NCBI GenBank assembly: GCA_963707865.1
Contig: OY970175.1
Span: 80,748-144,747, forward strand
Direction: 5' to 3'
DNA from: an uncultured bacterium
GTDB lineage: Bacteria > Patescibacteriota > Minisyncoccia > UBA6257 > 2-01-FULL-56-20
DNA length: 64,000 nt
The first letter of the stretch is position 1; each line of letters opens with the position of its first letter. Under the pieces are notes generated by a model. The model saw only the letters and a program-made list of their open reading frames with translations. It was not told the DNA's origin and did no database searches. Positions 1,038 to 9,212 of the stretch are shown here, piece after piece. The position numbers were made by a program, and so were the translations under genes.

Positions 1038-1129
1038 GTTGAATTGAAAGGGCAAAGAGCCAAAGTGAGTTAGTGAAAATAAATTCTCCGCGCCTGAAAG
1101 CGGGAGAATCTATCGCCCCGAAGACAATT

Positions 1130-1417
1130 TTACCCGCAGGTAACACTTGTATTCGCAGAAACCAGAGCTATCCAATCATTGATAAGTAATGATTTTCCTG
1201 TTTCTGCATTGCACGAGGCACACAGAGGAACAATGTACCAACCCCTGTCGGTTGAGCTATCTTTTTGGACGTGAGCTCCAACCGTAGGTTTTGAGAGGCA
1301 TTTATCTACCGGACAATACGAGGGGAGGTCTTGGCCGCTGAAGTTTTTCCAGTGATCAAGCCAGCTGCCGCAGTTGCATCGGTTTCCGCTGGTGCCGTTA
1401 ATATTGTTTATCCTCAT
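1130..1417 (-). CDS. Small Cys-rich protein with HNH-like nuclease motif
   Basis: 95 aa with CxC...CPxxxC, a GAHV histidine and IVPLCASCN, which resembles the HNH zinc-finger nuclease pattern. The gene is AT-rich. A hairpin plus T-run terminator lies on the minus strand just downstream, at about 1085-1120. Confidence 0.35.
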   Translation of the reverse strand: MRINNINGTSGNRCNCGSWLDHWKNFSGQDLPSYCPVDKCLSKPTVGAHVQKDSSTDRGWYIVPLCASCNAETGKSLLINDWIALVSANTSVTCG

Positions 1418-1568
1418 TATACGAAGGTTATTTTAATCTAGAGCGCAGTGATCGTCGACCTCGTCACTTTGGTTTTGCGGATATATTATATCCATCCTAC
1501 ACGGATGTCAAGAATCCCGACATACGAGGGCTTGACTTTTATACAAATAGGGTATAAGCTTTCAATAA

Positions 1569-2249
1569 ATGAGCAAGGAAATCCTTAAAATCATAAGGAA
1601 ATTGCGGCTAGAAAGGGGATTCTCGCAGGCGGCCATTGCTAAAAAATTAGGCATTTCGCGGGTTTCGTACATCGCTACGGAGCATGGGAAAAGGGAGTTA
1701 ACACTCGCCGAGGCACAGAAGCTCGCGGCAATTTTTGGCGCGAACCTGGACGAGATGGAGCGCGGGATCGCGCCGGATTATGACAAGTATAAAGAGATGA
1801 TCATTGCGTATCTGCGCGCAGATGATAGCGACGGCAAATTGCCAAAGACCAAACTCGCAAAGCTTCTTTATCTTGCTGACTTCGGCTGGTTCTACAAGCA
1901 TCTCATAAGCATGAGCGGCATGCCCTATCGAAAGTTCCAGTACGGTCCGGTTCCCGATATGTACTTCCGGGCAATTGACGAGCTCCAAGAGGAAGGAAGG
2001 ATAAATATTGTGCAGCACGATGAGGCCTCGTTGATTTTAGAAGGGGCCGGATCCAAAAATCAAAGGTTGGAGAAGCTGGATAAAAATGAAAAAGCTTTTA
2101 TTGGAGAAATCGCGAAGAGGTGGAGGGGCAAGCGGACGGGAGAAATAGTCGCATTTACCCATAATCAACTCCCGTATAAATTGAGCGCGGATAACGAGAT
2201 AATCCCGTACGAGCTCATCACGCAGGAGGATCCGGACCATGTCTACTGA
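1569..2249 (+). CDS. HTH (XRE family) - Panacea/DUF4065 domain protein (PanA/SocA-like antitoxin)
   Basis: The N-terminus is an XRE helix-turn-helix (LERGFSQAAIAKKLGISRVSYIATEHG). The middle has the Panacea/DUF4065 signature KLAKLLYLADFGW...FQYGPVPD. The last 11 nt overlap the next ORF. Confidence 0.75.
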   Translation: MSKEILKIIRKLRLERGFSQAAIAKKLGISRVSYIATEHGKRELTLAEAQKLAAIFGANLDEMERGIAPDYDKYKEMIIAYLRADDSDGKLPKTKLAKLLYLADFGWFYKHLISMSGMPYRKFQYGPVPDMYFRAIDELQEEGRINIVQHDEASLILEGAGSKNQRLEKLDKNEKAFIGEIAKRWRGKRTGEIVAFTHNQLPYKLSADNEIIPYELITQEDPDHVY

Positions 2250-2631
2250 TTATGGGATCGTTGTTGAACCATTTGCAGAGCGGCACTTCATAAAATCTTT
2301 CGCGAAGAAATATAAAGGCGCGTGGGATATTACCTGGCAGGCCATTGAGGCGGAGTTCAGGCATTTCGATGCGCTCTTTGAAACTTCCATCGCGGAGACG
2401 ATTGTTGATTCTCCGAGCGTAAAGATCTGCAAAACTGAATTCCGGGTGGCCGGAACCAAGGAATCGCGGCATGGGTCCGGTTGCCGTACGATCGTGGCAA
2501 TGGACAAGGGGACCAATATCGTGCACGTGCTCTTGGTGTATTGTAAGGGCGATCTGAAGGACGGGAATGAGACGGCGGCGTGGAAGCGGGTGGTGAGAGA
2601 TAATTATCCGAAGTATAGGGGACTGCTTTGA
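2239..2631 (+). CDS. Hypothetical 130-aa protein, candidate toxin partner of the Panacea antitoxin
   Basis: Overlaps the upstream HTH-Panacea gene by 11 nt and the downstream RM gene by 4 nt, so it is translationally coupled. Its C-terminal half (FRVAGTKESRHGSGCRTIVAMDKGTNIVHVLLVYCKGD) is rich in beta strands and reminiscent of the RelE/ParE fold, but no confident family match could be made by eye. Confidence 0.5.
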   Translation: MSTDYGIVVEPFAERHFIKSFAKKYKGAWDITWQAIEAEFRHFDALFETSIAETIVDSPSVKICKTEFRVAGTKESRHGSGCRTIVAMDKGTNIVHVLLVYCKGDLKDGNETAAWKRVVRDNYPKYRGLL

Positions 2632-4937
2632 AAATAAGGCAAAAACGGCGTAGGATTTTAGAAAGATTTAATCCTATGGACGTAGCGATTGCAAAGGAGA
2701 AAATCGCAGCCCTCGTTGCGAAATATAATGCCGAGGCTGTTTCTGATAAGTTGGGACGTTACAGCGAAGAAGATGTTAAAAACGCTTTTATTAAGCCGCT
2801 GTTCGAAGCTCTTGGCTGGGATATTGAGAATCGCGATGAGACCTCTGCGGAGGAACATATTAAATTCGCCGGAAGGGCTGATTACGGTTTTTACCTGAAT
2901 GGTCGCCCGAAATTTTACCTTGAAACAAAGAAGGTATCAGCTGACCTAAATAATCCTGAGTTTGCTAATCAAGCTGTTCGCTATGCGTGGAACAAAGGTA
3001 TTACCTGGGCAGTACTTACCAATTTTAAGGGTTTGAAAATTTTTAATGCTCAAGATATCAAGCGATCACTTGCAGATAAACTTTTTAAGGATATTAAACA
3101 CACGGAATACCTTTCACGCCTAGATGAACTCCTACTCCTTTCTCGGGAAGCTTTCGCGGAAAACCTATTGGATAAAGAAGCTGCAAAAGTAGGGAAAATT
3201 TATCTTCGGGTTCCCGTAGGCGACAAGCTTTATAAAGACCTAGATGAATGCCGAGCCAAGCTTACAAATGCTTTGCTCAAGTGCAACCCCGAACTGAAAA
3301 AGAATCATGATCTTCTTGATGAGGGCGTGCAGAAATTACTGGATCGTCTTATCTTTCTCCGCGTCGCCGAAGATCGCAATGTCGAGCCAAACATTTTAAG
3401 AATTCTTCTACGCGAAGCACAATCAACCCGCAAAGGGGAAATGTCGCTATATCAAGCGATGACAGAGAAATTTCGGGAACTTGACAAGGTTTACGACTCC
3501 AATCTTTTTTCGGAACATCCTTTTGAAAATTGGGATGAATATGATGGCGCTACGGAAAAAGTGATTGAAAAACTGTACGGAGAAAAGGGATACTATGAAT
3601 ATGATTTCAAGTTGATGCCAGCCGATGTTTTGGGCACCGTCTATGAGCATTATCTTGGCTACCGGCTTTCAAAAACAAAACCAGACAAGCGGAAATTGAT
3701 TCAAAGCAGCGGTGTAGAGCTCAGTAAGGATTCCAAGAAACGCAAGGAGCAGGGGATTTATTATACACCAACATTCGTTGTGGATTATATCGTTCGCCAC
3801 GCTTTGCAGCCAGTGCTTGATAAATGTAAAACATATCAAGACTTGATAAATGTAAAAGTTTTGGATCCTGCGTGTGGCTCTGGCTCTTTTCTTTTGAAAG
3901 CGCTTGAAGTCTTTAATGAAAAATATAAGGAGCTTGGGCAGAAAGGGGATGAGGATACTAAGCGCATTATTTTGAGCTGTAATTTATATGGCGTTGATCT
4001 TGACGAAAAAGCCGTAGAGATCGCAAGATTGAATTTACTCATAAATTCGCTTGATAGAAAAGAAGTTTTGCCTACGCCGAATATTAAATGTGGTAATTCG
4101 CTTATTTCCGGATCTGCTGAGGATCTTAAAAAATATTTTGGGGAAAATTGGAGGGAAAAGAAGCCGTTTAACTGGGAAGAAGAATTTTCTGAGATATTTA
4201 AAAACGGGGGATTTGATGTGGTGATTGGGAATCCGCCCTACGTGGTTTTAGAGGCAAGCGATGACCATTTATCATTTTTGAGAGATAACTATAAATCTTC
4301 ACAAGGGGGCAAAGTTAATCTATATAAGGCGTTTATCGAGCGAGGCATTGCCTTACTCAAAAGTGGCGGTCATCTCGGCTTCATCTGCCCTAGCAATTAT
4401 TTGTCGAGTAGCGATAGTAAGACCCTGAGAGAATTATTACTGAAGGAGACTAATTTAATTGAGATAATTGAATATTCTGAAAAAGATAAAGTTTTTGACG
4501 GTGTCACACAGGCTCTAACTACGATTATTTTCGAGAAGAGTAAAATGCATGCAAGTCAACTAGTCCATCTTGTAACAAAGAAGTATGGAGATGCAATTGT
4601 CGCCCAAGACAATCTACTTGAAGGTGAGGGCTATGAGTTTGTTGTTGAAAATAAAGCAATTAAAAAAATTGGCGATGCGAAATTAAGAATTTCCGATTTA
4701 TGCGAAGGATATCAGGGGGAGATCAATGTTAGTACAAAAAAAGAATTTTTTATACACGGGGCAAGAAGCAATTATCTGCCCCTACTTCGAGGTAATCAAA
4801 TTTTTAGATACCAACTCATTCCCTCTGATGAGTTTTGCCCAATTAGTATAGATAAAAGGGGGCACTGGAAAAGCCCACGCATTGTTTTACAAGAAGTTTC
4901 TAATCAGCAACAAGATAGAAGAATCAAGGGCGTTTGT
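2628..4937 (+). pseudogene. Type IIG/IIL single-chain restriction-modification enzyme, N-terminal 770 aa (Mrr-like PD-(D/E)XK nuclease + gamma-class N6-adenine methyltransferase), truncated by IS insertion
   Basis: N-terminal nuclease motif GRADYGFY...FYLETKK (D...ExK). Methyltransferase motifs GIYYTPTFVVDYIV, VLDPACGSGSFL (FxGxG, motif I) and VIGNPPYV (NPPY, motif IV). The reading frame runs into IS sequence after ...RIKG at about 4930 and terminates at 4967. The gene is AT-rich. Confidence 0.7.
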
Positions 4938-5959
4938 TTCATGTCCGCACATTTGTCCCCTCGATAGCTTGAAGATATTCAACCGGCGTCTTTCCCGCAA
5001 GGGCAAGATGAGGACAGACCGTGTTGTACCAGGCGCAGTACGCGGCCTGTTTTTGTTTCGCTTCGGCCACCGTGCGGAATGATATCTTGTTCCAGAACCG
5101 TTCGCGGTCATTGCGATGCGACCGCTCCACCTTGCCGTTCTGCGCAGGATGCCCCGGGGCGATGAGATAGTGCGTCATTTTTTGTTTTTCACAAGTAACA
5201 TCAAAAGGATGCAACCGCGGCTTCAGGGGATCTGCTGACTTCGGATATCCCACGTACCGGTTCGTGAAGATTGATCCGTTATCGGTCTTCACCGCACGGA
5301 TGCGGAAGGGTGCCGTAGCAATGACTTTCTCGAGAAACAAGATCGCGGTCCGCGTGGATTGTTCTTGGGTCACCCAGAGATGCCGCCACCGCGTGCAGCA
5401 ATCAATCGCGGTGAACTGGTAGAGCCATTGCCCCTTGAATCTCCGCACATAAACGACATCAATCTCGATGATCTCTCCGGGAAACGTGGCGGTCGGTTTC
5501 CACTTTGCTTTGGGCACCAACCGTTTTTTGGTTCTTGAGAGCCCCTCACGTTTCAGGACTTTGGCAATACCCCGCACGGAGAGCTTCAGGCCCTCGCGGG
5601 CGAGGAGATACATGAGGACATCAGGACCCAGATCCGTTGCTGTTCGCAACGATCTGATCCGATTCACGATGGTCTGTGAGAATTGTTTCGGATGCGTGTG
5701 CGGCCTGCGCGAGTGCGACACGAGCGCATCGATCCCGCCCCTGCGATATGCCGCCACCCACCGCTTGAGCGTGCGATATGAAAACGGCGCGTGGGCAGCA
5801 ATGTCCTTGATACTCATCTCTTTCTCAAGATGCGGGGTGATCCACCGCATCCGTTCCTCTGCTGCGTCTTTTGCGAGTGTTTGTGGCATATTCCCCAGCT
5901 TACACTTCAAGGGGCCATATGTATGTGCAGAGTACCCGTTCCTATTGACAGTGGGTTTC
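4938..5959 (-). mobile_element. IS481-family insertion sequence (~1.02 kb) inserted into the RM gene
   Basis: Carries a single DDE (rve-type) transposase ORF. Its GC is much higher than the surrounding AT-rich RM gene. The flanking RM fragments rejoin in frame if a putative 5-bp target-site duplication TTTGT (4933-4937 and 5960-5964) is collapsed. Imperfect terminal repeats share GCACAT...CCCCT. The boundaries are approximate, +/-10 bp. Confidence 0.6.
4939..5889 (-). CDS. IS481-family DDE transposase (integrase core domain)
   Basis: N-terminal HTH region, then integrase-core motifs (...TAIDCCTRW..., ...KTDNGSIFT..., ...APGHPAQNGKVERSHR...). The likely start is the ATG at 5889 (MPQTLAKD...), inside the longer track ORF 4939..6003. 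Confidence 0.75.
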   Translation of the reverse strand: MPQTLAKDAAEERMRWITPHLEKEMSIKDIAAHAPFSYRTLKRWVAAYRRGGIDALVSHSRRPHTHPKQFSQTIVNRIRSLRTATDLGPDVLMYLLAREGLKLSVRGIAKVLKREGLSRTKKRLVPKAKWKPTATFPGEIIEIDVVYVRRFKGQWLYQFTAIDCCTRWRHLWVTQEQSTRTAILFLEKVIATAPFRIRAVKTDNGSIFTNRYVGYPKSADPLKPRLHPFDVTCEKQKMTHYLIAPGHPAQNGKVERSHRNDRERFWNKISFRTVAEAKQKQAAYCAWYNTVCPHLALAGKTPVEYLQAIEGTNVRT

Positions 5960-6357
5960 TTTGTGGCCACACCACGAATTATGTTTTTCCCAAAGACAAA
6001 CACGCAGATATTTATTATTTGTTGGGGCTATTAAACAGTCGGGTGGTTGATTATTACTTTAAATATTTTAATAACACAAACCACGTTCCCATAGGAGAAC
6101 TGAAAGATATTCCCGTTCCGAAGACAACCAAAAAGGAACAAGATGTTATAGGGAATTTAGCAAAAATAATGGTTGAGCTACATCAAAAATGCGATAGCGT
6201 CAAAGAGAATTCAAATGGATGGAAAATTCTAAAAATTGAGATCGAAAAAACTGACAGAAAAATTGACGAAGAAATTTATAAATTATATAGCCTCAATCAA
6301 GAAGAAATGAAAACAATAGAGGGAGACTCAGAATCTTTAATCAAGCGGTCCAAATAG
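5960..6357 (+). pseudogene. C-terminal fragment (~130 aa) of the disrupted type IIG RM enzyme
   Basis: HTTNYVFPKDKHADIYYLLGLLNSRVVDYYF...IGELKDIPVP...EEIYKLYSLNQEEMKTIE is the characteristic C-terminal region of type IIG / gamma-MTase enzymes. It is AT-rich like the N-terminal fragment. Confidence 0.55.
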
Positions 6358-6540
6358 TTTCGGCAGGCTATGTAATAGATATGGACGGTCGCGGGCCGGT
6401 AAGACCGGCCCGCTCCTGCGGAACCTCTCGGTTCCGCACTGTCCCGCCGCAAAATCGTGCGGCGGGACCTTCCTACACGGGGCACCTCCCGGTGCCCCGA
6501 CCCCCTCCCCGAATCCATGTCTCGGTAGTATCTTATGTGT

Positions 6541-7650
6541 ATGCGCATCGTTGGACATCTCGACATGGATTCCTTCTTCGCCTCAATAGAAGAGAGGGAT
6601 CGGCCGCGCTTGAAGGGTTTGCCGATTGTTATTGGTGCGGATCCGGAGGATGGCAGAGGACGCGGGGTGGTGTCTACCGCGAACTACCGGGCGCGGGAAT
6701 ATGGGATTCGGTCTGCACTCCCAATTGCGACGGCGTGGCGGTATTCGGAGGCAGCGCGGAAGAAGGGGCTCCCGCCTGCGGTCTTTCTTGGGGTCAATAT
6801 GGAAAAATATGCGGAGGAGTCGCGGCGCGTGATGGGGATCGTGCGCGAGGTCTTGGGGGCCACGGCGCTTGTGGAGGAGGCGTCGGTGGATGAGGCGTTC
6901 GTTGATCTGTCGTTCACGGGTTCGTATGAGCGTGCGGAAAAGGTGGCGCGGACGGTCGCGCGCGCGATCAAAGAAAAAACGGGACTCACGGCGTCGGTGG
7001 GCGTGGGGCCGAACAAGCTTATCGCAAAGATCGCGTCGGACCGCGAGAAGCCGGACGGGTTCACATTTGTGCGAGAGTGCGATGCCGAGAAATTCCTTGA
7101 GCCCTTGCCGATCCGCACGATCCCGGGCGTGGGACCAAAAACGGAGGCGCGGTTCAGGGAGCAGGGCGTCCGCACGGTGGGGGACGCGAAGCGGTTCACG
7201 CGTGAGGAGCTTACGGAGATGATGGGCAAATGGGGTGCGGAGCTCTACGAAAAATTGCGCGGGCGGGACGAGTCACCGCTCGTCACGGAGTGGATCGCGA
7301 AGTCCGTGGGGGAGCAGGAGACCTTTCCGCGTGACACGCACGACCCGAAGTTCCTGCGTGAGCGCTTAACCGCGCTTGCGGCGGGGGTCTATGAGCGATT
7401 CGCGGCGGAGGCTTCGGAGGGGCACTTTAAAAGCTTCCGCGGCGTCACGATCACCGTCCGCTTCGCGGACTTTGCGACCGTGACGCGCGCGGCGACGCTT
7501 GACGAACCCGTTATGGCCCGCGACCCCGCTGCGCTCCGCACGCTCCAGTTCCAGGCCTTGCGCCTCTTCATGCCTTTCCTTGACCGCCGCGAGAATCCCG
7601 CGCGCAAGGCCTTCCGGCTCCTTGGGGTGCGCGTGGAGAAGCTGGTTTAA
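6541..7650 (+). CDS. dinB: DNA polymerase IV (Y-family, DinB)
   Basis: HLDMDSFFASIEERDRP...LKGLPIVIG...SVDEAFVDL motifs, with a size and domain order typical of DinB. Confidence 0.85.
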   Translation: MRIVGHLDMDSFFASIEERDRPRLKGLPIVIGADPEDGRGRGVVSTANYRAREYGIRSALPIATAWRYSEAARKKGLPPAVFLGVNMEKYAEESRRVMGIVREVLGATALVEEASVDEAFVDLSFTGSYERAEKVARTVARAIKEKTGLTASVGVGPNKLIAKIASDREKPDGFTFVRECDAEKFLEPLPIRTIPGVGPKTEARFREQGVRTVGDAKRFTREELTEMMGKWGAELYEKLRGRDESPLVTEWIAKSVGEQETFPRDTHDPKFLRERLTALAAGVYERFAAEASEGHFKSFRGVTITVRFADFATVTRAATLDEPVMARDPAALRTLQFQALRLFMPFLDRRENPARKAFRLLGVRVEKLV

Positions 7651-7691
7651 GTCAGCGGATTTTAGAAGATTTTAACCCCTTATTTGATAGT

Positions 7692-8045
7692 GTGGGTTGG
7701 ATGGAAAAGGATTTTGGGAAGTGGCATATTCTTAAAACAGATCTCCAGCGCAGAGAAGGTGGGCCATTTTTCGCCAAGCGAGAGATCTGGATTTGCTCAG
7801 TCGGTTTAAACCTTGGCCACGAAGAAGACGGGAAAGGTGATCGATTTTTGCGCCCGGTTGTCATCTTTAAGAAATTTACCTCAGATCTCTTTTGGGGCAT
7901 ACCTCTCACAAGTAGCGACAAGAGTGGACCATCCCATTATCAATTTAATTTCTTGGTTCCACAAATCGAAACCCCTTCTCGCGAAGAAGGGGTTTCTCGG
8001 GGGGCCGAAGCCCATTGTGATTCCAGTATAGCAGGAGCAGGATAA
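7692..8045 (+). CDS. PemK/MazF-family toxin-like protein (mRNA interferase fold), no cognate antitoxin seen
   Basis: REIWICSVGLNLGHEEDGKGDRFLRPVVIF...GIPLTS matches PemK/Kid (GEIWLVSLDPTAGHEQQGTRPVLIV...VPVTS). The C-terminal 40 aa are divergent. No small upstream ORF is present. Confidence 0.5.
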   Translation: MGWMEKDFGKWHILKTDLQRREGGPFFAKREIWICSVGLNLGHEEDGKGDRFLRPVVIFKKFTSDLFWGIPLTSSDKSGPSHYQFNFLVPQIETPSREEGVSRGAEAHCDSSIAGAG

Positions 8046-8101
8046 TTGTCAACCATCATTTAATGAAAATTTAATCTCTGGACAGGTGGTAGAATTCAAG
8101 T

Positions 8102-8350
8102 ATGAAGATTTTTGTGAAGGCGAAACCTGGCGCGAAGAAAACGGCCGTGGGCGATGCAAACGAGCTTTTGGGAAAGACAGGTGAGATTCACCTTATTGTT
8201 TCCGTGAAGGAGCCCGCGAAGGAGGGTCGCGCAAACCGCGCGATAGAAAGGGCGCTTGCGGAGTATTTTAAGGTGCCGCCGTCGCGCGTGCGGATCGTTG
8301 CAGGGCATGCGTCGCGCGAGAAGGTCGTGGAAATCGGCGGCGCCCCATAG
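8102..8350 (+). CDS. DUF167/YggU family protein
   Basis: 82 aa, with KAKPGAKKTAV...EPAKEGRANRAIERALAEYFKVPPSRVRIVAGHASREKVVEI typical of UPF0235/YggU. Confidence 0.7.
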   Translation: MKIFVKAKPGAKKTAVGDANELLGKTGEIHLIVSVKEPAKEGRANRAIERALAEYFKVPPSRVRIVAGHASREKVVEIGGAP

Positions 8351-8360
8351 GCGTGCTATA

Positions 8361-9212
8361 ATGGAAAATATGCCGGATACAACGCCGAAGGTGGCGATGG
8401 ATTCGCTGGATACGCTTTTTGCAGGGGCATGGCGTTTATATAAAACGCGTTTTTCGGTGCTCCTTAAGATCACGCTCGTCCCCGCAGTCCTCATCGTATT
8501 GGGGCAGCTCGCAATAAGTCGCAGAACGCCTACGGCGGAAGTGATCGGAGTACTCATTGGTTTTGTGGGATGGCTTACCTCCATCGTGGCATCGCTTGCG
8601 CTCATCGTGGCCGCCGCGCGCGACGCCAAAATGGAGGACGCGTACGGAACGGCCCTCAAGCTTTTCTTGCCATCGCTGTGGATCGCCATTCTTGAGGGCA
8701 TTGTCGTTATGGGAGGATTTGTACTCTTCATCATACCCGGCATTTTCGTCGCCATTGCGCTTGCGTTCGCAAATTTCGCGCTTGTGCTTGAGGACCGGCG
8801 CGGCATGCACGCGCTTGCGGAAAGCAGAGAATATGTTCGCGGCTATTGGTGGGCGATCCTCGGACGGAACATGCTTCTTGCGCTTATCTACGGTGCGCTC
8901 GTAATGCTTATCTACACTCCCTTTACGATTATCTTCGGGGGGCTCGTGGGCGGCATCGTGTACGGCTTGCTTCTCCTCGCCATCGTTCCTTTTGGAATTT
9001 GCTATTCTTACACGATCTATGAAAATTTGCGGTGTTTGAAACCGGCCGCTGCGGATGACGCCGCGCGCGCAAGCCGTACGTTCTTTATCGTGTGCATGGT
9101 GGTGGCACTCGTTGCGGCACTCGCGCTTATCGTGGCAATCGCGTTCCTTGTGCGACCCGCAGTTAGCGATCCGTATTGGTGGCCCAAGATGGGCACGTCT
9201 GGGAGCGTGTAG
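8361..9212 (+). CDS. Integral membrane protein (multi-pass), unknown function
   Basis: 284 aa from the ATG at 8361, with about 6 hydrophobic helices. Codon usage matches the host. It converges with tsaD. Confidence 0.5.
   Translation: MENMPDTTPKVAMDSLDTLFAGAWRLYKTRFSVLLKITLVPAVLIVLGQLAISRRTPTAEVIGVLIGFVGWLTSIVASLALIVAAARDAKMEDAYGTALKLFLPSLWIAILEGIVVMGGFVLFIIPGIFVAIALAFANFALVLEDRRGMHALAESREYVRGYWWAILGRNMLLALIYGALVMLIYTPFTIIFGGLVGGIVYGLLLLAIVPFGICYSYTIYENLRCLKPAAADDAARASRTFFIVCMVVALVAALALIVAIAFLVRPAVSDPYWWPKMGTSGSV

Follow-up and report, generated by a model that had tools for sequence, protein, structure and literature searches.

This study concerns two overlapping genes, here called panA and panT, near the beginning of a 64,000-nucleotide (nt) stretch of contig OY970175.1 (hereafter the window; assembly GCA_963707865.1, positions 80,748 to 144,747) from an uncultured member of the Patescibacteriota. 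The first gene, panA (1569-2249, plus strand), starts with ATG and encodes a 226-residue predicted antitoxin, putatively also an autorepressor, with a helix-turn-helix (HTH) and a Panacea domain. The second gene, panT (2239-2631, plus strand), also starts with ATG and encodes a 130-residue predicted toxin with a RelE/ParE fold, probably of the HigB2/RelE-like type. The 3' end of panA and the start of panT share 11 nt (2239-2249, plus strand), which points to translational coupling, and a Shine-Dalgarno motif, AGGAGG, can be read on the plus strand at 2224-2229, inside the panA codons Q219-E220-D221 and 9 nt before the panT ATG. A preliminary description of this DNA, made without database searches, had given both open reading frames (ORFs) and their 11-nt overlap, and these coordinates were reproduced exactly. 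It had also claimed a 4-nt overlap between panT and the restriction-modification (RM) gene downstream, which could not be upheld: that overlap needs a TTG start at 2628, and an ATG at 2676 is better supported. Since the alignment with the PADLOC Type IIG model begins at residue 21 of the RM ORF, corresponding to model position 5, the RM gene probably starts at the ATG at 2676 (MDVAIAKEK...), which leaves a 44-nt spacer after panT, and the claimed overlap is probably an artefact of ORF calling.

The domain composition of the panA product was examined with Pfam. An XRE-type HTH was matched by HTH_3 at residues 9-62 (E 2.8e-12; nt 1593-1754), and SocA_Panacea (PF13274, DUF4065) was matched at residues 96-203 (nt 1854-2177) with an E-value of 5.5e-11 and 43.8 bits against a gathering cut-off of 25.7, with profile positions 1-112 of 113 aligned. 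The same two domains had been read from the sequence in the preliminary description, which had named the lack of a significant DUF4065 match as grounds for abandoning the idea; the Pfam check placed both matches above their cut-offs. The protein can thus be divided into the HTH (9-62), a linker (63-95), the Panacea domain (96-203), and a C-terminal tail (204-226), and the four segments are conserved alike (0.65-0.71), the linker and tail as much as the domains. The HTH is the sole extra domain beside Panacea, and no separate neutralising domain is present. It has been reported that in single-domain PanAs the Panacea domain itself neutralises the toxin and that multidomain PanAs can use other domains (PMC10440598). 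Given the equal conservation of the linker and tail, either of them or the Panacea domain could neutralise the toxin in this family.

The association of the two genes was then assessed in 86 related loci, in 85 of which upstream DNA was present and linkage could be evaluated. In all 85, a full-length HTH-Panacea homologue (50-67% identity) lies on the same strand immediately 5' of the toxin gene, and the order is antitoxin-first in all related loci. Distant subgroups of the toxin (about 30% identity) have the same HTH-Panacea partner in the same order. The junction is likewise constrained: among 83 loci it measures -11 nt in 58, -14 nt in 15, and +2 to +8 nt in the remaining 10. A strong Shine-Dalgarno core before the toxin ATG was found in only 11 of 80 unique pairs, which indicates that the overlap, rather than the Shine-Dalgarno motif, is the conserved feature of the coupling. 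No third gene is conserved, as the commonest flanking cluster, translational GTPases, occurs in 9 of 77 loci and every other cluster in five or fewer. A cysteine-rich ORF of 95 residues on the minus strand (1130-1417) was considered as a third component and rejected, with a counterpart in none of the 86 loci. The immediate neighbours are varied and include SecY, GatB, tRNA synthetases, SAM synthetase, and RM and other defence genes. Strict linkage, the lack of a third gene, and the mixed neighbours together imply an autonomous two-gene cassette. The preliminary description had recognised a toxin-antitoxin operon architecture here, proposed a synteny check, and considered a toxin ORF absent or unlinked in homologous loci as evidence to the contrary; the pair was kept together in every testable locus regardless of its neighbours, and the 11-nt overlap is identical in most related loci. 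With this linkage and a spacing of -14 to +8 nt, the pairs also agree with the two-gene criteria for PanAT systems of Kurata et al. (2022).

A single promoter with operator-like elements precedes panA in the window, all on the plus strand. A perfect inverted repeat, ATGTC-N9-GACAT (1505-1523; ATGTC at 1505-1509 and GACAT at 1519-1523), the counterpart here of the family box ATGTCAA-N5-TyAACAy, lies just 5' of the -35 element TTGACT (1532-1537), which is followed by a second half-site, TACA (1542-1545; family consensus TTGACTTTTTTACAT). The -10 element TATAAG (1553-1558) follows the -35 after a 15-nt spacer, because of which the promoter is missed by a generic promoter scan, and ends 10 nt before the ATG at 1569. 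In an alignment of 78 upstream regions from unique loci, anchored at the start codon, the family layout is ATGTCAA-N5-TyAACAy, about 8 nt, TTGACTTTTTTACAT, about 8 nt, TATACT, 6-7 nt, and ATG, and the columns of the -35 and its half-site are the most conserved non-coding positions. Among 77 related loci, the -35 is TTGAC[TA] in 57, the -10 is TATACT or TATAAT in 43, the spacer is 16-17 nt in 66, and the distance from the end of the -10 to the ATG is 6-11 nt in 58. So short a distance suggests that most transcripts are leaderless or nearly so. The pattern TGTC-N6-12-[GAT]ACA was found 5' of the -35 in 49 of 79 unique related loci (shuffled sequences: mean 1.0, maximum 5). By analogy with the usual type II design, the half-sites may form an operator bound by the HTH, in which case the operon would be autorepressed. 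A promoter-like site was also seen on the minus strand (TTGACA at 1511-1506, a 17-nt spacer, and TAATAT at 1488-1483; 10 of 12 matches); it overlaps the panA operator box and faces the cysteine-rich ORF at 1130-1417.

The 130-residue protein has no match in Pfam, PADLOC, NCBIfam, or PHROGs, nor among PDB sequences searched with phmmer, in keeping with the preliminary description, which could assign no motif to it and regarded a confident non-toxin family assignment as the result that would count against a toxin; no such assignment emerged. A search of 5.8 billion proteins yielded 516 clusters at 90% identity with E <= 0.01. Among the best 120 of these, identity is 58-84% across the whole protein, none bears a name other than 'hypothetical', and the organisms, where given, are almost always Patescibacteria, that is, members of the Candidate Phyla Radiation (CPR). 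When representatives of clusters at 50% identity were searched exhaustively with phmmer, 170 of the clusters were matched; P0220, a 1142-residue repeat protein also returned by that search, was dismissed as a repeat-inflated false positive. The distant subgroups mentioned above (136-146 residues) add at least 499 further clusters, found in metagenome-assembled genomes (MAGs) of Saccharimonadales and Saccharibacteria and in a few MAGs labelled Firmicutes or Coriobacteriales, and the two non-overlapping lists of the best 120 together drew on roughly a thousand 90%-identity clusters. When one genome per GTDB species was scanned, at least 201 genomes contained a relative, overwhelmingly CPR MAGs. 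The hundreds of homologous clusters demonstrate that the 130-residue ORF is a real and widespread gene and not a chance ORF.

No relative was detected in the phage and plasmid collections searched; a single match in Bosea from that search (26% identity) lies inside treY and was discarded as noise. Besides the CPR genomes, CPR-type cassettes with toxins 55-62% identical occur on six contigs (L017, L021, L026, L062, L071, and L083) from MAGs labelled Pacearchaeota, Nanoarchaeota, Gammaproteobacteria, and Bacteroidia. Such copies may be explained by mis-binning or mislabelling, or else by transfer linking ultra-small bacteria to other lineages. When homologues of the copy labelled Bacteroidia were sought, CPR-type proteins alone were returned, and mis-binning is therefore favoured for that copy. 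In addition, an identical cassette was observed in three loci from MAGs labelled Verrucomicrobiota (L004, L006, and L012; about 2025-8396). The genes that flank it there encode two tyrosine integrases and an ArdC-like antirestriction/metalloprotease, which indicates that it resides on an integrative mobile element.

Structure prediction provided the basis for the functional assignment of PanT. The AlphaFold2 model, built from a 50-sequence alignment, is confident, with a predicted local distance difference test score (pLDDT) of 89.9 and a predicted template-modelling score (pTM) of 0.86, and its chain runs from a strand through three helices and four antiparallel strands to a C-terminal helix. 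In this model, an N-terminal strand and two long helices packed against an antiparallel sheet correspond to the RelE/ParE (BECR) fold. The structural matches of the model are archaeal RelE (1wmi, score 11.2), YoeB (10.1), Streptococcus pneumoniae HigB (9.5), YafQ (9.4), HigB2 (9.3), and ParE2 (8.6). Foldseek gave archaeal RelE at 4e-4 and HigB2 at 2e-3, with mRNases and not ParE proteins in the upper ranks.

Comparison of profiles pointed in the same direction. The narrow family profile (A1) matched nothing in the PDB, and a wider profile built from 96 diverse members (A2) had eight PDB matches at E <= 10, of which the best five are all Vibrio cholerae HigB2 (E about 0.03). In the A2 alignment, the family motif S-G-N-R...L-L-V-Y-x-K-N falls on HigB2 G-G-S-R64...L-L-T-I-Y82-G-K84-N, and R83, Y101, and K103 of PanT are aligned with the catalytic R64, Y82, and K84 of HigB2 (alignment E about 0.03). 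It has been reported that HigB2 R51, R64, Y82, and K84 form a RelE-like active site and that alanine substitutions lower its activity 170- to 3000-fold (Hadzi et al. 2017, PMC5416850), the loss for R64, Y82, and K84 being 350- to 3000-fold (PMC5416850). At least 90% of the 96 family members, down to 25% identity, retain R83, Y101, and K103; the same holds for K23, K65, F68, S76, S80, G81, L98, and T112, and E111 is invariant. The family thus has the arginine on a central strand and the Tyr-x-Lys at the end of the last strand that characterise HigB2/RelE-type toxins. In the window, four of the near-invariant residues are encoded on the plus strand at 2431-2433 (K65), 2485-2487 (R83), 2539-2541 (Y101), and 2545-2547 (K103). 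As a consistency check only, a non-significant hhalign alignment of A2 with Escherichia coli RelE places K65 on K54 and R83 on R61. A Pfam scan of the 96 members at E-values up to 10 gave one PF06296 match (E 0.014) and no recurrent family. From fold and residue conservation it is concluded that PanT is a divergent HigB2/RelE-like protein, probably a ribosome-dependent mRNA endonuclease. The 'vaguely RelE/ParE-like' appearance noted in the preliminary description agrees with the modelled fold and with HigB2 as the sole sequence relative in the PDB; its suggestion of a new PanT-type toxin holds for the toxin partner and fails for the novelty of the type, as the protein looks like a divergent member of the HigB2/RelE-like group.

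The closest known counterparts of the cassette are found among PanAT systems. An earlier survey of RefSeq genomes described 88 putative PanT clusters, several of them RelE/ParE-like (Kurata et al. 2022, PMC8832971), and demonstrated that PanA antitoxins form type II complexes with toxins of many folds (PMC8832971). One of these clusters, T14 (pT15), pairs an HTH-PanA with a 'hypothetical protein' in the order antitoxin then toxin and has the status 'notest' (PMC8832971). Its genes overlap by exactly 11 nt in Ca. Saccharimonas aalborgensis and TM7 HOT_356 and are spaced by +2 nt in Pedobacter and +6 nt in Flexibacter (PMC8832971), and the best HHpred match of its representative is HigB-2 (99.7%; PMC8832971). 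The present family shares with T14 the HTH-PanA, the gene order, the -11 nt junction (the modal value here), HigB2 as remote relative, and the occurrence in Saccharibacteria, whereas the CPR and metagenomic radiation seen here lies outside a survey that covered RefSeq only. Hence, the panT family is very probably T14, a match made by these descriptors and not by accession or sequence (WP_015641600.1, WP_129619247.1). Whether or not it is T14, a Panacea antitoxin with a RelE-superfamily toxin is an already known kind of system: the MqsR:PanA pairs of the Bartonella/B. fungorum type likewise combine an HTH and Panacea antitoxin with a RelE-superfamily mRNase (Ernits et al. 2023, PMC10440598).

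On the toxin side, V. cholerae HigB2 (PF06296) shares with PanT the RelE-type fold with a C-terminal helix, the long loop before the arginine-bearing strand, and the motif G-x-R...LL-x-x-Y-x-K-N, with arginine, tyrosine, and lysine at the catalytic positions. PanT differs from it by the lack of a PF06296 match, an identity of about 15%, a length of 130 versus 110 residues, and the absence of a conserved equivalent of Arg51. The HigBA2 module is toxin-first, in contrast to the antitoxin-first order of panA and panT in all loci, and HigA2, which is unrelated to PanA, has a disordered N-terminal segment and a C-terminal HTH without Panacea, whereas PanA has an N-terminal HTH followed by Panacea. 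Archaeal RelE (PHS013, 1wmi), E. coli RelE, and YoeB have no significant sequence similarity to PanT, which is about 40 residues longer, with one additional short helix, a loop of greater length, and a conserved C-terminal helix with NET-W-K. The antitoxins of RelE- and YoeB-type toxins are RelB or YefM, unlike the HTH-Panacea partner of PanT. SocAB, a type VI toxin-antitoxin system of Caulobacter, resembles the cassette in its Panacea domain and differs in the fold of the partner, in the HTH that is present in PanA, and in the SocA equivalog model, whose cut-off PanA does not reach.

The Panacea and HTH scores, the RelE/ParE fold, the HigB2 motif, the strict linkage, and the conserved promoter and operator argue that the locus is an autonomous type II PanAT cassette with a predicted HigB2/RelE-like, mRNA-cleaving toxin, an interpretation to which a probability of about 75% may be assigned. 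Under this interpretation, the promoter with its -35 at 1532 and its -10 at 1553 would produce a near-leaderless bicistronic mRNA. PanA would probably dimerise and probably bind the half-sites of the TGTCA/TGACA type on both sides of the -35 and overlapping with it, thereby repressing its own operon, and the 11-nt overlap would couple the translation of panT to that of panA. As in validated PanAT pairs, PanA would be expected to bind the toxin and keep it off the ribosome, a task that would fall to Panacea, the conserved linker, or the conserved tail. Loss, degradation, or triggering of PanA would release the toxin, which would then move into the ribosomal A site and could cut mRNA with an active site of arginine, lysine, and tyrosine residues (K65, R83, Y101, and K103) resembling the active sites of HigB2 and E. 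coli RelE, so that translation and growth would stop. The likely role would be either abortive-infection defence or stabilisation of a horizontally acquired low-GC island.

Several points weigh against this interpretation. In sequence, the resemblance to HigB2 is marginal (E about 0.03) and covers a stretch of 40 residues. Position 69 of PanT, which corresponds to HigB2 Arg51, varies among family members; K65 is a conserved basic residue on the same strand. The hhalign comparisons of A2 with single archaeal RelE, YoeB, and RelE sequences were not significant (probability <= 1%), and none of the RelE-type Pfam models considered (PF06296, PF05016, PF06769, PF05015, PF09907, and PF15738) was matched by the window toxin, even at E-values from 1 to 10. 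The toxicity of panT family members is itself a matter of inference, T14 of Kurata et al. being marked 'notest', and multidomain PanAs do not always neutralise by means of Panacea (PMC10440598). Finally, proteins with a RelE/ParE fold can instead poison gyrase, as ParE does.

The last point leads to an alternative in which PanT would be a ParE-type gyrase poison that has the same fold and does not cut mRNA, with the PanA partner and the operon logic unchanged. This appears very unlikely, as mRNases (archaeal RelE, YoeB, HigB, YafQ, and HigB2) account for the best structural matches and for every top match in Foldseek, HigB2 is the only match in the PDB at the sequence level, and the arginine, tyrosine, and lysine at HigB2 catalytic positions, which ParE toxins do not need, are near-invariant. 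It is also highly improbable that the pair works like the type VI system SocAB, with the Panacea protein as an adaptor that, instead of sequestering the toxin, hands it to ClpXP for degradation. Panacea is indeed the domain of SocA, and the NCBIfam SocA_antitoxin model gave a weak match; however, the SocA equivalog (NF047745) scored 15.1 bits against a cut-off of 190, the partner has a RelE fold and is not SocB-like, those PanAT pairs that were tested assemble into stable type II complexes (PMC8832971), and an N-terminal HTH autorepressor belongs to the type II design.

The neighbourhood of the pair suggests two further possibilities. The pair often stands beside RM genes, inside or directly 5' of type I RM operons, and next to a Type IIG gene in the window, as might be expected if it were not a toxin-antitoxin system at all and if a dead or non-toxic RelE-fold protein served as co-regulator or sensor together with the HTH-Panacea protein, for example for neighbouring defence genes. 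Such a role is unlikely, since the residues at the active-site positions are strongly conserved, the neighbours in most loci are unrelated housekeeping genes, the pair has its own conserved promoter and operator, and its order, overlap, and gene sizes match those of classical type II toxin-antitoxin modules. A more speculative and rather unlikely extension of the type II PanAT interpretation is that the cassette exceeds a generic addiction module and is a CPR-wide, horizontally mobile abortive-infection unit functionally tied to RM systems, in which Panacea would sense phage anti-restriction activity or the loss of RM and release the HigB2-like mRNase, which would serve as a second line of defence or would guard and stabilise the RM island.

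With the type II PanAT interpretation, the panT family, which is annotated 'hypothetical' everywhere and has no curated Pfam, NCBIfam, PADLOC, or PHROG model, would gain a name and a testable mechanism. The family is found mostly in Patescibacteria, whose defence and stress biology is poorly known, and an untested PanT cluster is probably among the main Panacea partners in CPR bacteria. What is added here to the known kind of system is the size of the CPR radiation, the predicted HigB2-type active site, the conserved and apparently leaderless promoter with its putative operator, and a toxin family without a curated model. The residues K65, R83, Y101, and K103 and the leaderless promoter/operator may serve as experimental handles. 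The cassette does not change the understanding of toxin-antitoxin systems in general.

The low-GC island of the window that contains the pair (about 1100-6400) has 35-53% GC, compared with about 60% on either side, and is bordered by a HIT/phosphoglycerate-mutase-like region and a DinB gene. The GC content of the pair itself is 47-53%, which is unlike the flanks and fits horizontal acquisition; no tRNA gene and no flanking direct repeats were found bounding the island. The preliminary description had placed the pair in an AT-rich defence island next to an RM system, which agrees with the measured composition and with the gene downstream, a Type IIG RM gene (PADLOC REase_MTase_IIG, E 9e-104). 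The RM gene was rejected as a member of the operon, given its probable start at 2676 and the fact that it does not follow the pair in most related loci. It is interrupted by an IS481-like element (about 4935-6002, with the ends TGTTT...AAACA), whose transposase ORF (4939-6003, minus strand) has rve, rve_3, and LZ_Tnp_IS481 domains. The two fragments of the RM gene cover 2676-4934 and 5791-6357, the second, after the insertion sequence, being a TaqI_C-type C-terminal specificity part. As the insertion splits the gene, the RM system beside the toxin-antitoxin pair is probably inactive.

An association with defence genes was also seen in other loci. In L087 the pair (2319-3411) lies between hsdS and hsdR, and in L088, L089, and L092 (pair at 2334-3438 in the last) it lies just 5' of an hsdR gene encoding an HsdR of 945 to 1043 residues; these four loci belong to distant subgroups of the family, probably from Saccharibacteria. 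A reverse-transcriptase-like gene was observed upstream in L088 and L089. In several other loci the pair adjoins Type ISP/IIG, GmrSD, or HsdS genes, and about a fifth of the immediate upstream neighbours are RM or defence genes, the pair being equally found among housekeeping genes.

Some additional features were observed near the pair. The cysteine-rich ORF at 1130-1417, which is divergent from panA, has the pattern CxC...C...C...CxxC together with GAHV...PLCxxCN, and its only match is a weak one to PADLOC REase_II (E 0.038), with none in the PDB; it may encode a small protein of the zinc-finger or HNH-like kind. The 44-nt spacer between the toxin and RM genes contains a promoter-like site (2628-2656; TTGAAA, 17 nt, TAGGAT; 9 of 12 matches), which suggests that the RM gene may have its own promoter instead of depending on read-through from the toxin-antitoxin operon. 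The coding region of the Type IIG RM gene also contains two perfect copies of the 16-nt sequence CTTGATAAATGTAAAA in direct orientation, at 3816-3831 and 3842-3857, 26 nt apart.

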